Shown here in pieces: positions 48,798-54,967 of a DNA stretch of 64,000 bases (position 1 is the first letter of the stretch; the number at the start of each line of letters is the position of its first letter). A program made the translations under genes and the position numbers. The notes beneath the pieces were generated by a model. It worked only from the letters and a program-made list of their open reading frames with translations. It ran no database searches and was not told the origin of the DNA. Source of the DNA: an uncultured Trueperaceae bacterium (GTDB lineage Bacteria > Deinococcota > Deinococci > Deinococcales > Trueperaceae); contig CAWFFU010000012.1 of the NCBI GenBank assembly GCA_963815215.1, positions 90,493 to 154,492 of the forward strand. The letters are read 5' to 3'.

Positions 48798-50048
48798 TCA
48801 GGCCATGGGGATGAGCCACGCCGCCGCGATGCAGCCCACCGCCGCCAGCAGCAGCGTGACGAGCACCGAGCGGCCGAACGGCCGGGACCCGATGGTCAGC
48901 GCGATCCCCGCCTTGAACAGGCTGTTGGTGGCCGCCGCGATGGCCAGGCCGCGCGCGGCGACGTGCACGTCGAGGCCGGTTCCTACCTGGTGGGCGAGCG
49001 TGAGCGTGATGGCGTCGAGCTGCGTGACGCCGGCCAGCGCGCTCGCCAGGTACAGGCCCTGTTCCCCGAGGTAGACCTGGGCGGCTTTGGCGGCCAGCAG
49101 GATGATGCTGAACAGGACCGCGAACTGCAACGCCGTTCGCAGCTCGAACGGGTTGGTGACCTTGACGCCCTCGAGGCGGTCGCGATTGCGCTTGCGCAGC
49201 GCCGTCAGCCCGCCCACGGTGGTGATCACGAAGAGCACGCCCAGCGGGATCAGCGTGGGCACGATGAGCCTGGGCTGCAACACGCCCAGCAGCACCCACA
49301 AGCGGGGCACCATCACGGCGGAGGCCGCCAGCACCCCGATGGCGTAGACGATGGCGAGCGTTGGCTGTTTCTTGCTGCGCTCGCTGAAGCTCATCGTCAC
49401 CGCCGTGCTCGAGGCCAGGCCGCCGAGCAGTCCGCTCCAACCGATGCCGCGGGTAGCGCCGATGAGCTTGGAGGCCACGTAGCCCACGAACGAGAGCCCG
49501 GAGATCAGCACCACCAAGAGCCAGATAGTGCGGGGATTCCAGACGCCCCAGGGGCCGAACGTCTCGTTCGGTACCAGCGGCAGGACGACCAGCGACACCA
49601 CCGCGAACTGCACCACGGCGTAGAGATCTTCCCGCGAAACGGCGCCGGCGAGGCGCCTGAGCTCGGTCCGCATCGACAGCATGCCGGTCGTGATCACCGC
49701 GCCGGCCAGGGCGGGGATGAACTGGCCGTAGCCCGCCAGCACCCCCAGGCCGTAGGCGACCAGCACGGCGACCTGGGTGGTGCCGCCGATCTTCTCGCCG
49801 ACGGTCTCCCGCCAGTACGCCATGGCGATGAGCACCGCCAGGGGCAGGAAGCTTGCTACCAGCACCCACGGCGAGACCACTTGCGTGAGCGTGCCCACGA
49901 CGGCGCCGAACAGCGCGATCAAGGGGAAGGTACGGATGCCGGCGAAGATCGAGCCCTGCGTCTCGCGCTTGCGCTCGCGTTCCAGCCCGATGAGGAAGCC
50001 GAGCAGGACGGCGACGAGAAAGGAGAGGATGACCTGCTTCGAGTCCAC
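48798..50048 (-). CDS. MgtC/SapB family membrane protein (DUF4010 type)
   Basis: GFLIGLERE, AGIRTF, GGLASSTA and NPFEL..AL.F motifs. Confidence 0.88.
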   Translation of the reverse strand: MDSKQVILSFLVAVLLGFLIGLERERKRETQGSIFAGIRTFPLIALFGAVVGTLTQVVSPWVLVASFLPLAVLIAMAYWRETVGEKIGGTTQVAVLVAYGLGVLAGYGQFIPALAGAVITTGMLSMRTELRRLAGAVSREDLYAVVQFAVVSLVVLPLVPNETFGPWGVWNPRTIWLLVVLISGLSFVGYVASKLIGATRGIGWSGLLGGLASSTAVTMSFSERSKKQPTLAIVYAIGVLAASAVMVPRLWVLLGVLQPRLIVPTLIPLGVLFVITTVGGLTALRKRNRDRLEGVKVTNPFELRTALQFAVLFSIILLAAKAAQVYLGEQGLYLASALAGVTQLDAITLTLAHQVGTGLDVHVAARGLAIAAATNSLFKAGIALTIGSRPFGRSVLVTLLLAAVGCIAAAWLIPMA

Positions 50049-50091: not shown

Positions 50092-50946
50092 TTATCGCTC
50101 CTGGTCCCGCGAATCGGTGACCGACGTCCCGCGGATCCGGTCGAGCAGCGCTGCGCCGTAGCGCTCGAGCTTGACCGGGCCGATGCCGTGCACGCGGGCC
50201 AGCGCCTGCAGGTCCTGCGGCCGGCGCTCCACGATGGCATCGATGGTGGCGTCGCCCATCACCAGCGCCTCACTGCGACCCTCGGACGCCGCGGCGTCGC
50301 GACGCCAGGCCTGCAGGGCGGCGCGCAGGGCGGTGTCCGTCGGCACAGTGTCCGTCGGCACATTGTCCGTCGGCACGGTGTGCGTCGGCGCTGTTTCAGT
50401 CGGCCCAGACGCGAACGGCGCTGCATCCAGCGGGTCTGCCGCCGACGGAGTCGTGCTCGCCGGCGCGGTCGACGGAGGCGTGGCACCCGGCCCCACGGCC
50501 ACCTCCCGAGCGGGACCGCGCCGCGACAGCACCACCATCGCGATGCCGGCCGCGATCAGCAGCACCGCGAACGCCGAGGACATCAGCACGCCGGTCTCGG
50601 CCAGGCCCGTCACCACGCCGAGCGCGATGAGCCCGAGCCCGACGATGCGCGGCCAGCGGTTCTCGCGCGGCGCCGCCAGGTCGATCGCTGCCACGCCGGC
50701 GCCGAGGCTCACCAGGAAGGCGCCCGGCCAGTGCCAGCTGCCCTCGAGCAAGATGCCGACGGCGACGCCCATCAGGATGGCGCCCAGCACCAGGAAGGCG
50801 TAGATATGCTCGCGCTGGTAGGCGACCAGGAAGCCGACGGCGACCAGGCCGATCCACAGCCAGCCCGAGTCGCCCGTGAGTCGGGACAGCAGGGCGACCA
50901 GGCCGATCGCGATGAGCGCATAGGCGACGAGGCGCGTGTTGGTCAT
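50092..50946 (-). CDS. Polytopic membrane protein with C-terminal HRDC domain
   Basis: About 6 TM segments, Pro/Thr linker, then LRAALQAWRR..A....VMGDATIDAIVERRP..L.RVHGIGPVKLERYG. Confidence 0.8.
   Translation of the reverse strand: MTNTRLVAYALIAIGLVALLSRLTGDSGWLWIGLVAVGFLVAYQREHIYAFLVLGAILMGVAVGILLEGSWHWPGAFLVSLGAGVAAIDLAAPRENRWPRIVGLGLIALGVVTGLAETGVLMSSAFAVLLIAAGIAMVVLSRRGPAREVAVGPGATPPSTAPASTTPSAADPLDAAPFASGPTETAPTHTVPTDNVPTDTVPTDTALRAALQAWRRDAAASEGRSEALVMGDATIDAIVERRPQDLQALARVHGIGPVKLERYGAALLDRIRGTSVTDSRDQER
50333..50407. repeat. Degenerate 15-bp in-frame tandem repeat, 5 units (PTETA-PTHTV-PTDNV-PTDTV-PTDTA linker)
   Basis: gtgtccgtcggcaca x2, ttgtccgtcggcacg, gtgtgcgtcggcgct, gtttcagtcggccca. 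Confidence 0.8.
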
Positions 50947-51167
50947 GGCGGGCGTGTCTCCTCTCGCGGGTTGCGGACGGACGGGACCGGCTCAGCTCAG
51001 TGTAGCGTCCCGGCGCGGGCGCGCACGCCACGACACGGTGCCACGCGCCGGCTCCCCGGTTATGGGATGGGCTACAAGGGCGCCCAAGAGGGGGTGGTAT
51101 CGTGCTCTCGAACCTGGAAGGCGAGGCGCGCCGTGAGCGTCACGGCGACTCGACGTTGGCACTCGCG

Positions 51168-51368
51168 ATGACCAAGCGTTCGGACATTCGGCTATCCGTG
51201 CTCCTGCTAGGCGACCTCAGTGCCGCCCGAGCCCCGGTGTTGCATCGCCGGGGTTTCTTCTTGGACTCGGTCGAACGAGTTCCGGAGGCGGCTCGGTCCA
51301 GCGGCGGAGCCACGGCTCCGGTGCCGGCGTTGGCATCGTTGGCGAAAGGAGGCCTGCGTGATTCGTGA
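51168..51368 (+). CDS. Putative Ile/Leu/Val-rich leader ORF of the bkd operon (MTKRSDIRLSVLLLGDL...)
   Basis: ATT-CGG-CTA-TCC-GTG-CTC-CTG-CTA cluster; the ORF crosses a terminator and stops just inside the E1-alpha coding start. Confidence 0.55.
   Translation: MTKRSDIRLSVLLLGDLSAARAPVLHRRGFFLDSVERVPEAARSSGGATAPVPALASLAKGGLRDS
51230..51262 (+). terminator. Intrinsic terminator/attenuator in the bkd 5' leader
   Basis: AGCCCCGGTG-TTGCAT-CGCCGGGGTT stem followed by TCTTCTT. Confidence 0.7.
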
Positions 51369-52455
51369 TTCGCAGCTCTTCCAGCCCTTCGGCGACGACC
51401 CGATCTCGCTCATCGGCGAGTCCGGCGAATGGAAGGGGACGTTCGATCTCGACCTCGGGCCGGACGCGCTCCTCGGTATGTACCACGACCTCGTCGCGGG
51501 CAGGATGATGGATGAACGCCTGAGCCGTTTGCAGCGGCAGGGCAAGCTCAGTTTCGTGGCGCCCAGCGCGGGCCACGAGGGTGCTCAGGTGGGCGTGGCG
51601 CACGCCCTCCGGCGCGGGCACGACTGGCTCTTCCCGTACTACCGCGATACCACTCTGTTGCTGGCGTTCGGGCTCCCGTACGTGGAGATGCTCGGCCAGG
51701 CCATGGCCACCCGGGCGGACACCAACCGTGGTCGCCAGATGCCGTCGCACAACGGCTCCAAGGACCTCAACATCTTCACCATCGCGTCCCCCATCGCATC
51801 GCACCTCGCGCCGGCGGTGGGAGCGGCGATCAGCATGAAGGTCCAAGGGAGCGGGCAGGTCGCCGCCGCCAGCTTCGGCGAGGGTGCGACCAGCGAAGGC
51901 GACTTCCATGCCGCGCTCAACTTCGCCGGCGCTCAGGGGGCGCCCGTCGTCTTCGTGTGCGAGAACAACCGCTACGCCATCAGCGTCGAGTACCACAAGC
52001 AGACCGGCGCGGAATCGATCGCCGCGAAGGCCCACGCCTACGGCATGCCCGGCTACACGGTCGACGGCATGGACGTGCTGGCGAGCTATTACGTGATGCG
52101 CGAGGCGGTCGAGCGGGCGCGCAGCGGGCTCGGCCCCACCCTGGTCGAGGCGCTGGTGTACCGCTACGGCGCGCACTCCTCGGCCGACGACGACAGCCGC
52201 TACCGGCCGCAGGAGGAGGTAGAGGCCTGGAAGCGGCGCGATCCGCTCCAGAGCTTCCGCGCCTTCCTCGAGCGACGCGAGCTGTGGGACGACGCCGCCG
52301 ACACGGAGCTCCGCACCCAGATCGACGAGGCCTTCAAAGCGGCCACCGCGGAGGCCGAGGCGGCGGGACCCATCCCGGTGTCGTGGATGTTCGACGATGT
52401 GTTCGCCTACCGGCTTCCCCACCTGGAGGAGCAGCGCCGTGATCTCCTCGACTGA
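51358..52455 (+). CDS. Branched-chain 2-oxoacid dehydrogenase E1 alpha
   Basis: GHEGAQVG, PYYRD, GRQMPSH, GEGATSEGD..ENN (TPP motif) and HSSADDDSRYR. From memory it closely resembles Thermus BCKDH E1a. AAGGAGG RBS. Confidence 0.88.
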   Translation: MIRDSQLFQPFGDDPISLIGESGEWKGTFDLDLGPDALLGMYHDLVAGRMMDERLSRLQRQGKLSFVAPSAGHEGAQVGVAHALRRGHDWLFPYYRDTTLLLAFGLPYVEMLGQAMATRADTNRGRQMPSHNGSKDLNIFTIASPIASHLAPAVGAAISMKVQGSGQVAAASFGEGATSEGDFHAALNFAGAQGAPVVFVCENNRYAISVEYHKQTGAESIAAKAHAYGMPGYTVDGMDVLASYYVMREAVERARSGLGPTLVEALVYRYGAHSSADDDSRYRPQEEVEAWKRRDPLQSFRAFLERRELWDDAADTELRTQIDEAFKAATAEAEAAGPIPVSWMFDDVFAYRLPHLEEQRRDLLD

Positions 52456-52485: not shown

Positions 52486-53463
52486 GTGACCGTGCAAACG
52501 ATGGTCCAGACCATCGCCCGCACGCTCGACCAGGAGATGAGCGTGGACGAGCGGGTGGTCGTGATGGGGCAGGACGTGGGCAAGCGCGGGGGGGTGTTCC
52601 TCGCCACCGAGAAGCTCTTCGACCGGTACGGCCCGGATCGGGTGATCGACACGCCGCTGTCGGAGGCGGCCATCATCGGCGCGGCGCTGGGGATGGCGGT
52701 GCACGGGCTGCGGCCGGTGGCGGAGATCCAGTTCTCCGACTACGTGTTCCCCGGCTTCGACCAGTTGGTGTCGCAGGTGGCGAAGCTGCGCTACCGCTCC
52801 GGCGGCCAGTTCACGGCGCCCCTCGTGGTCCGGATGCCGTCGGGCGGTGGCGTCAGGGGGGGGCACCACCACTCGCAGTCGCCCGAGACGCACTTCGTCC
52901 ACACGGCGGGTCTCAAGGTGGTGTACCCCTCCACCCCGACCGACGCCCGGGGCCTGCTCCGCACGGCCATCCGTGACGAGGACCCGGTGGTGTTCCTGGA
53001 GCCCAAACGGCTCTACCGGGCGGTGAAGGAGGAGGTCCCCGACGATCCCGAGTTCGCGCTGCCCTTCGGGCAGGCGGCCGTCCGGAGGCAGGGTGACGAC
53101 GTGGTGCTGGTGTCCTACGGCGGCAGCATGCCGGAGACGCTGAAGGCCGCCGACGCGCTGGCGGAGCAGGGCGTGTCCGCCCACGTGATCGACCTCCGGT
53201 CGCTCATGCCGTGGGACAAGGGCGCGGTGCTGGACGCGGTCGCACGCGTGGGCCGGGTGGTGCTGGTGAGTGAGGCGCCGCGCACCAACGGCTTCATGAG
53301 CGAGGTCGGGGCCACCCTCGCCGAGGAGGCGCTCGACCTGCTGCTGGCGCCGCCGCTGCGGGTCACCGGCTTCGACACGCCCTATCCGTACGCGCAGGAC
53401 CGGGAGTACATGCCGGGTCCGAACCGCATCCTGAAGGGCGTCAAGCGGGTCCTCGAGTACTGA
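52486..53463 (+). CDS. 2-oxoacid dehydrogenase E1 beta
   Basis: [25 protein letters not shown] and HHSQSPE motifs. Confidence 0.92.
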
Positions 53464-53566
53464 CGCGCGACCGGGCGGCGGGCGCCGGAGCGCGTGGGCG
53501 CCGCGGTCCTGGTAGCGTGGCGCAAGCGAAGGGCAGGCCGCCACGGCGCGGCCGCGAGGAGTGTGC

Positions 53567-54967
53567 ATGTCAAGAGAGTTCCGGCTTCCCGAGCTGGCCG
53601 AGTCGGTGGTGGAGGGTGAGATCGTCCGCTGGCTCGTCGCCGAGGGCGAGGAGGTCCAACAGGACCAACCCGTCGTCGAGGTGATGACCGACAAGGTCAC
53701 GGTCGAGCTGCCCAGTCCCTACGCGGGCGTGTTGCTGAAGCAGCTAGCGGGGGAGGGCGACGTGGTCCCGGTACACGAGCCGATCGCGCTCTTCGGCGAC
53801 GTTGCCGACGCCGTCGGTTCCGGCGCGCCGGAGTCCAGGCCCGCTCCCAGCCTGCTGGCCGAGGAGGAGCGCTCGATCGTCGAGCCCGGCGGCGTCGCGG
53901 AGGAGGACGACGGCTCGAGCCTGTCGCTGTTCCGCCCCGGTCCGGAGGAGGAGGGAGGGGCGACCTTCCAGGTGCGTTCGGGAGGTGCCGCCGTTGCACC
54001 CCGGCCCGCCGAGCCGCGGCCTTCCGAACCTTCGGCGGCGCGACCCGGCCCGGCGGCGCGCGGCCCCTACGGTCGCGTGCTGGCCGTGCCCGCGGCCCGC
54101 AAGCTGGCCCGTGAGCTCGAGGTCGACATCGAGCAGGTCGAGGGCAGCGGTCCCAACGGCCGCATACGCGTCGACGACGTGCGCGCGCACAACGAACGCG
54201 GTCGAGGCGCGGCTGCGCCGGCGCGGCAGCCGGCCCGCTACGTGAGCCCCGAGGGCTACGGCGAGTTGGAGGAGCGCATCCCGCTGCGCGGGCTGCGGCG
54301 CATCATCTCCAACCAGATGCTGGCGTCGCACCTGCAGACCGTGCGCACCCTGCACGTCGACGAGGCCGACGTGAGCGCTCTGGTGGCGCTCCGCCGCGGC
54401 CTCAAGCCGATCGCGGAGGCTCGCGGCGTGAAGCTCTCCTACCTCCCGTTCATCATGAAGGCCGTGGTGGCGGCGCTCCAGGAGTTCCCGCAGCTCAACG
54501 CCAGCCTCGACGAGGAGAACGGCGAGATCGTCCGCAAGCACTACTACAACCTCGGCATGGCCGTCGCGACCGAGGCGGGGCTGACGGTGCCGGTGGTGAA
54601 GGACGTGGACCGCCGCACGGTGATGGAGGTCGCGGCCGAAGTGAACCGCCTGGCGGCGGCGGCGCGTGACGGCAAGCTCACCACCGACGACGTCCGCGGC
54701 GGCACCTTCTCGATCACCAACATCGGCAGTCTGGGAGGCCTGTTCAGCTTCCCGATCATCAACATCCCCGAGGCGGCCATCCTCGGCGTGCACTCCATCA
54801 AGCGCCGGCCGGTGGTGCTCGCCGACGACAGCATCGCGGCGCGCGACATGCTCTACCTCAGTCTGTCGTTCGACCATCGGGTCGTCGACGGCGCGGAGGG
54901 CGCGCTGTTCACCGGTCGGGTGATCGAGCTGCTTCAGACCCCCGAGGCGATGATGCTCGACCTGTAG
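53567..54967 (+). CDS. Dihydrolipoamide acyltransferase E2
   Basis: Lipoyl motif EVMTDKV, E3-binding PAARKLARE..GSGPNGRI, catalytic SFDHRVVDG. Confidence 0.93.
   Translation: MSREFRLPELAESVVEGEIVRWLVAEGEEVQQDQPVVEVMTDKVTVELPSPYAGVLLKQLAGEGDVVPVHEPIALFGDVADAVGSGAPESRPAPSLLAEEERSIVEPGGVAEEDDGSSLSLFRPGPEEEGGATFQVRSGGAAVAPRPAEPRPSEPSAARPGPAARGPYGRVLAVPAARKLARELEVDIEQVEGSGPNGRIRVDDVRAHNERGRGAAAPARQPARYVSPEGYGELEERIPLRGLRRIISNQMLASHLQTVRTLHVDEADVSALVALRRGLKPIAEARGVKLSYLPFIMKAVVAALQEFPQLNASLDEENGEIVRKHYYNLGMAVATEAGLTVPVVKDVDRRTVMEVAAEVNRLAAAARDGKLTTDDVRGGTFSITNIGSLGGLFSFPIINIPEAAILGVHSIKRRPVVLADDSIAARDMLYLSLSFDHRVVDGAEGALFTGRVIELLQTPEAMMLDL

Follow-up and report, generated by a model that had tools for sequence, protein, structure and literature searches.

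A Conserved Leader upstream of the Branched-Chain 2-Oxo-Acid Dehydrogenase Operon in Deinococcota as a Candidate Attenuator of Inverted Logic

The Operon and Its Genomic Context

The window, that is, the whole stretch of 64,000 nucleotides analysed here, carries on its forward strand the genes for E1-alpha of a Thermus-type (branched-chain) 2-oxo-acid dehydrogenase (51358..52455, start GTG at 51358, PF00676), E1-beta (52486..53463) and the E2 dihydrolipoamide acyltransferase (53561..54967). The best match of E1-alpha was PDB 1um9_A (E 1.3e-146), against 4e-63 for PDH E1-alpha, while E1-beta matched 1um9_B (E 2.3e-159) and 2-oxoisovalerate dehydrogenase beta (4.9e-94); E2 matched the E2 families, all under their curated cut-offs. 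The structure file of 1um9 speaks only of a 2-oxo acid dehydrogenase, and we take it to be the branched-chain E1 of Thermus thermophilus. The first-pass annotation had called these genes similar to the branched-chain keto-acid dehydrogenase, and the matches agree with it: the three genes probably form a branched-chain 2-oxo-acid dehydrogenase (bkd) operon, with the substrate specificity assigned from homology. The same genome also encodes ilvB, leuA and a separate aceE PDH; therefore, the cell produces branched-chain keto acids and presumably breaks them down as well.

By its named relatives, the window belongs among the Trueperaceae/Deinococcales. Two divergent neighbours lie on the minus strand, a membrane protein with a C-terminal HRDC domain (window 50092-50946) and an MgtC/DUF4010 protein (window 48798-50048). 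Genes similar to both flank the operon in many Trueperaceae.

Anatomy of the Leader

All leader features described here are on the forward strand. An extended -10 promoter box, TG-g-TATCGT, was read from the sequence at 51095..51103 (TG at 51095-96, hexamer at 51098-51103), and by eye a similar TG-n-TAnnnT box was also seen upstream of orthologs; transcription would presumably start near 51110. A small hairpin conserved within this genus (51130..51146) lies 5' of the leader ATG. The consensus promoter/terminator scan called neither a promoter nor a terminator in the leader, and Rfam gave nothing at the gathering score, with five sub-gathering matches at chance level. About 20-35 nt 5' of the -10 box, a motif TATG..(G/C)TACA (window 51063-51077) recurs in this genus, and a GTTAC-like core is its counterpart in other Trueperaceae; the motif is a possible regulator site.

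The leader ORF (51168..51368) is 66 aa long and its translation is MTKRSDIRLSVLLLGDLSAARAPVLHRRGFF...GGLRDS*, a peptide without a Pfam match. The ORF has no Shine-Dalgarno (SD) sequence ahead of its ATG, as is also the case for the leader ATGs of this genus; it runs through the putative terminator and ends with a TGA 8 nt within E1-alpha, whose own SD, AAGGAGG, lies at 51346..51352. Its sensor codon cluster, I-R-L-S-V-L-L-L-G-D-L (51186..51218), includes ATT at codon 7 (51186) and CTA at codons 9 and 14 (51192 and 51207). Among 2065 heuristically called ORFs of the genome, CTA accounted for 1386 of 90951 Leu codons (1.5%) and ATT for 0.8% of Ile codons. The spacer at 51219..51231, which would separate the stem from the footprint of a ribosome halted at the last CTA, contains no stem-complementary G-run. 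Then follows the candidate intrinsic terminator (51232..51262), made up of a stem-loop at 51232-51253 and the U-tract TTTCTTCTT at 51254-51262. The stem begins 64 nt after the leader ATG, the hairpin core starts 22 nt 3' of the last CTA, and G-U pairs lengthen the stem to about 51229-51256. The local fold of this hairpin had a z of -2.41, and the entire 261-nt leader (z = -1.49) showed no unusual degree of structure. The U-richness of the tail equals or exceeds that of most gene-end terminator candidates of this genome.

Most of this anatomy had been described in the first-pass annotation, namely the -10 box, the ORF from ATG 51168 with its ATT, its two CTA codons and its TGA at 51368 just inside E1-alpha, the lack of a clear ribosome-binding site, and a GC hairpin with a U-rich tail at 51230-51262. 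Each of these was present as claimed, and the rarity of CTA and ATT that it had expected from the GC content is borne out by the codon counts.

Two further ideas about the leader were rejected. The GTG mini-ORF at 51133, whose end falls on the leader ATG, was considered as a loading device, and its frame was unconserved in the genus. The idea that CTA is part of a CTAG DNA site was dropped because, in the alignments, the base 3' of CTA varies while the frame holds.

Distribution of the Element in Deinococcota

E1-alpha matches at E <= 1e-100 were found in 219 of 364 genomes of the phylum (one unpublished genome included, on which nothing else here depends), and we examined 119 distinct upstream regions, which corresponds to roughly half of the matching genomes. 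These regions comprised 30 loci from the phylum search, 80 further regions and 16 named loci, less 6 duplicates and one Salinisphaera locus. The genus labels Thermus-type (g58), Meiothermus (g57), Calidithermus-type (g55) and Marinithermaceae (g51-g53) were inferred from the families to which the genomes belong and from identity to named loci. Hand curation identified the layout in 61 of the 119 regions and in 19 of 36 genus groups, the curated leaders spanning 18 Deinococcota genera and Thermomicrobia. A strict automatic rule retained 38 regions from 16 groups, all within the curated set. Applied to controls, the same rule picked none of 30 aceE leaders, none of 27 ilvB leaders and 1 of 50 E1-alpha leaders from other phyla. 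The comparison of bkd upstream regions across Deinococcota that the first-pass annotation had suggested thus revealed conserved codons, terminator and read-through frame in 61/119, and comparison of sequences confirmed that the bkd leader element is real and conserved.

The element was absent from the other 58 orthologous leaders, including all 18 of the Thermus type, and the GTG-started frame found there was unconserved; the layout was also absent from the aceE leaders, five Thermus-type ones among them. Work on amino-acid-responsive attenuation in Thermus is said to exist, and the first-pass annotation had suspected that a related mechanism was already reported there. This suspicion found no support in the Thermus-type bkd leaders (18/18 without the element), and no such paper was found in the full-text literature searched.

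When 264 terminator-like sites in this genome were scanned for the layout, 6 candidates emerged. Three of the 5 candidates other than the bkd leader were read in context and rejected, two lying inside genes and one being a gene-end terminator.

Several lineages showed features of their own. A small conserved hairpin, CCC-TTACCC-AGGG, occurs 47-130 nt upstream of E1-alpha (L111-L129, L145-L150, L012-L023, L060, L142, L144), with a single copy in each of the 18 Thermus-type leaders, while those of Meiothermus and of the Calidithermus type have one or two. The hairpin may be bound by a protein, in place of the attenuator or in addition to it. The leader module also precedes the operon copies of Thermomicrobia (L010, L020 and L022; bacterium HR26), whose E1-alpha is Deinococcota-like at 60-62% identity. 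Their leaders read through and are very rich in Leu/Ile/Val (ILV) codons, with ATA, GTA and CTT in place of CTA and a weak U-tail, which suggests that operon and leader were transferred together to these lineages. A search of 9 genomes from genera g52 and g53 gave no aceE-type PDH, and these genera may oxidize pyruvate via another enzyme.

Leader Translation, Sensor Codons and Terminator Hairpin

The leader frame was picked by a CTA/ILV score alone and then checked for ATG, the choice of starts by SD strength being unsuitable in this genus, where it picked wrong frames. An open in-frame ATG 24-130 nt upstream was present in the scored frame of 53 of the 61 leaders, compared with 8 of 122 for the other frames. 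With GTG also allowed as a start, the frame was open into the stem in 61/61, the earliest stop lying 6 nt within the stem; the absence of a stop ahead of the hairpin, first noted for this locus, is therefore common to every curated leader. A strong SD precedes the start in Marinithermaceae, Calidithermus-type and Meiothermus leaders.

Of the 549 in-frame codons located 18-44 nt ahead of the stem, 64 were CTA, but of the 366 at 0-17 nt only 1 was; the frame score rewards CTA and ILV codons, and the in-frame level is thus inflated, while the exclusion at 9-17 nt, which falls inside the scored window, is unaffected. Off-frame CTA occurred 3 times in 1098 codons at 18-44 nt, and genus-averaged values were in agreement. 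In the zone 18-53 nt before the stem, CTA accounted for 71 of 142 Leu codons, and Leu, Ile and Val together for 298 of 732 codons, including common ones (ATC 48, CTC 27, GTG 27). The last CTA lay 19-62 nt before the stem (median 29, n = 52 bkd leaders with CTA). A frame-free count around 57 hairpins picked by the automatic search, several of them wrongly, gave 80 CTA in 3078 nt upstream and 19 in 3276 nt downstream, with 46 of 82 CTA pairs in a common frame. Because related leaders are not independent, and the score inflates the counts as well, these numbers overstate significance and P-values were set aside. The peptides share composition, not sequence. On this comparative evidence the bkd leader appears to be translated, presumably also in vivo. 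In L165 and L169 the sensor region is enlarged by short tandem repeats with CTA kept in frame.

The hairpin was compared in 41 of the 61 leaders, near-duplicates and seven divergent Meiothermus hairpins being excluded. In the stem, 92% of cells were paired, 53 of them with double-sided changes, in windows anchored on hand-chosen stems, which biases them toward pairing. This covariation was reached by none of 500 shuffles, and registers slid along the alignment paired at 40-53%. The tails were variable, 15 of 61 having three T or fewer in 10 nt. Judged from this covariation, the hairpin is selected as a structure, and it would presumably terminate transcription in vivo.

The ilvB Leaders as a Control for Polarity

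The ilvB leaders of the phylum served as a control for polarity. Thirty were examined, 27 of which had a terminator by the filter, and in 26 of these 27 a CTA-containing leader stopped 14-35 nt before the stem; the exception was a false pick inside a gene. In this genome the ilvB leader has two CTA codons and stops at a TAG 21 nt ahead of the stem. This attenuator has a leaderless start and lies on the minus strand (G000:C3, about 423600-423730, L191), and classical CTA attenuators were seen upstream of ilvB across Deinococcota (L196-L224). A G-run (>=4) able to pair with the C-rich 5' arm was present in 25 of 26 ilvB leaders versus 7 of 61 bkd leaders, and the median duplex with the 5' arm was -13.6 kcal/mol for ilvB versus -6.3 for bkd.

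In classical logic, a ribosome at the leader stop must permit termination. According to PMC4824070, the leader stops of classical attenuators lie >20 bp from the terminator so that termination stays possible. The last bkd CTA is at the distance of the ilvB stop; therefore, a ribosome stalled there should also permit termination. Moreover, no stop precedes the bkd stem and a fed ribosome would enter it, and therefore stalling should mean OFF and progress ON. In the masked fold of the window the stem was disrupted only once the A site reached codon 19-20. Equilibrium folding under a ribosome mask failed the ilvB antitermination control and was used for geometry only; because of this failure, it cannot itself exclude an antiterminator.

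The separate steps have precedents in the literature. CUA has been tested as the sensor codon in the leu attenuator of Salmonella (PMC1183508), the intrinsic terminator of pyrBI is suppressed by a coupled ribosome (PMC5021804, PMC4824070), and a stall site upstream of the pyrL terminator increased termination in an engineered reporter (PMC5021804).

Proposed Mechanism

Based on the conserved anatomy and the ilvB calibration, we proposed, with a probability of about 0.7, that an inverted-logic ribosome-mediated transcription attenuator controls the branched-chain keto-acid dehydrogenase operon. The first-pass annotation had advanced the same reverse logic (plentiful amino acids ON, scarce OFF), and both lines of evidence favour it, with the ON and OFF states themselves inferred. 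By default the terminator would fold. When tRNAs for Leu (also Ile/Val) are under-charged, the leading ribosome would linger on the CTA/ILV cluster, leaving about 10 nt between its front and the stem, so that RNA polymerase would get ahead, the hairpin would form and the transcript would end near 51260. When the tRNAs are charged, the ribosome would keep up and pass codons 19-20, covering the 5' arm, and the polymerase would read on. In many relatives the ribosome would terminate on the E1-alpha start or close to it, and translational coupling might then add to the control. The predicted effect is that keto-acid precursors of Leu/Ile/Val are spared from destruction while they are being made.

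A weak point of this model is timing. In E. coli, suppression of terminators is poor within the first 100 bp of an ORF, except where a pause brings ribosome and polymerase into step (PMC4824070). The model would thus need some pause during which the ribosome could draw level with RNA polymerase over about 65-95 nt, and a search for the elemental-pause consensus in the bkd leaders found none conserved. The missing SD at the leader ATG in this genus, the T-poor tails of 15 of 61 leaders and the 58 of 119 orthologous leaders that lack the element also speak against it. In its favour, only 5 of 80 gene-end terminator candidates in this genome lie within 12 nt of a stop, a pattern used as a proxy for coupled transcription and translation (PMC7858274).

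A broader reading, toward which we lean slightly, is that one organism uses one signal, the charging of the CUA-reading tRNA, in two mirror-image leaders, so that at the same threshold ilv/leu biosynthesis would be shut and degradation opened. Such a pair would be natural and widespread and would require no alternative RNA structure in the bkd leader, the polarity being set only by the position of the stop codon and the G-run.

Alternative Explanations

The element might act mainly on translation, with leader-finishing ribosomes unwinding the 5' region and re-initiating at E1-alpha; ILV shortage would then lower E1-alpha translation, Rho polarity would follow as a consequence and the hairpin would be secondary. 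In 40 of the 61 leaders the stop falls in the interval -21..+11 nt around the E1-alpha start, with exact overlap in 22/61 from 10 genera, and some terminator-less lineages keep an SD-led ORF that overlaps the E1-alpha start (L181, L163, L160) or ends at -13 (L186). These two observations make a translational layer plausible, and the SD is also less accessible in bkd than in ilvB leaders (median 0.42 vs 0.61, from unequal windows). As the principal mode of control we nevertheless consider it unlikely: overlap of stop and start is automatic in one of three frames because E1-alpha begins ATG/GTG-AT, many leaders stop within or just past the hairpin, and the sensor codons hold their distance to the stem and not to E1-alpha, which lies 20 to about 160 nt from the hairpin. 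The four terminator-less loci belong to Trueperaceae genera g35, g15 and g36, and their upstream ORFs are ILV-rich in L181 and L186. They are possibly a translation-coupling variant and may rely on coupling alone.

The other alternatives concern what the attenuator senses, whether it switches at all, and in which direction. That the leader responds to the overall pace of translation or to coupling (growth rate, rare-tRNA supply, tRNA modification) and not to Leu/Ile/Val seems to us quite unlikely, considering that so many zone codons are pathway-matched (298/732), common codons among them, and that ilvB leaders use the same CTA; still, CTA and ATT are rare in any condition, and the pyrL terminator reacts to any loss of coupling (PMC5021804). 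A fixed damper or decaying relic, in which a terminator early in the ORF nearly always works and sets a low basal level, would agree with the efficiency of early-ORF terminators in E. coli (PMC4824070), with the missing element in 58/119 leaders and with the failure to find a pause. It would need no conserved start codon, open frame, pathway-matched codons or 18-nt exclusion zone across three families, and is very unlikely. We gave hardly any credence to classical polarity, in which stalling means ON and the operon might, for example, supply branched acyl-CoA primers in starvation. A downstream segment pairs with the 5' arm at -8 kcal/mol or below in 8/61 leaders for a stall at the last sensor codon and in 14/61 for a stall at the first, the 5' arm of the window pairs with far-upstream sequence in truncated RNA, and the ribosome-mask folding had failed its ilvB control. 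Unlike ilvB, however, the bkd leaders contain no conserved antiterminator strand, and classical polarity would have no OFF state because a fed ribosome, meeting no stop before the stem, would destroy the terminator.

Novelty and Significance

Attenuation by tRNA charging is taught as a device that switches biosynthesis on in starvation. A natural version of opposite sign would extend attenuation to catabolism without any regulator protein. No published description of this bkd leader element was found in full-text literature, a source in which subscription journals are mostly uncovered, and the available portions of PMC13323073 and PMC1262725 contain nothing on Deinococcota. The layout gives genome searches a simple target, a leader ORF that contains a terminator preceded at 18-45 nt by cognate codons, and it gives thermophile engineering an amino-acid-ON part of about 100 nt. 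In Deinococcota the bkd leader could also report, as a native element, on the coupling of transcription and translation, and together with the ilvB leader it would make both polarities testable within one cell.

Comparison with Known Systems

In E. coli tnaC, arrest induced by free Trp blocks Rho, and the tryptophanase operon is ON with its amino acid. The bkd operon resembles this system in that a leader peptide would control a catabolic operon that is ON with its amino acid. Unlike in tnaC, the ON state of bkd would come from ribosome progress and not from arrest, the terminator is a conserved intrinsic hairpin, and the peptides have no conserved arrest sequence, only a common composition.

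Classical attenuators (leu, ilv, trp, his and the Deinococcota ilvB) likewise have a short leader ORF, cognate codons, a CUA Leu sensor and a GC-rich intrinsic terminator. They control biosynthetic operons, whereas the bkd operon is catabolic. Unlike them, the bkd leader has no stop before the terminator (0/61 vs 26/27 in ilvB) and no antiterminator strand, and its predicted polarity is reversed, a stall meaning OFF.

The geometry has its closest counterpart in E. coli pyrBI, where the terminator lies inside the leader ORF (pyrL) and is blocked by a tightly coupled ribosome (PMC5021804, PMC4824070); the likeness is one of geometry only. While pyrBI senses UTP via polymerase pausing, in bkd the ILV codons would convey the signal by changing how fast the ribosome moves. 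No U-run of the kind that forms the pyrBI pause tracts was present between ATG 51168 and the stem, and T-rich positions in the leaders of relatives coincide with the second positions of ILV codons. The engineered reporter that joins a stall site to pyrL (PMC5021804) follows the same logic with an in-frame terminator, but it is synthetic, based on polyproline and EF-P, and is not a natural amino-acid sensor. The bkd element falls outside both the pyrBI and the leu/ilv classes, and combines a pyrBI-like geometry with leu/ilv-like sensing.
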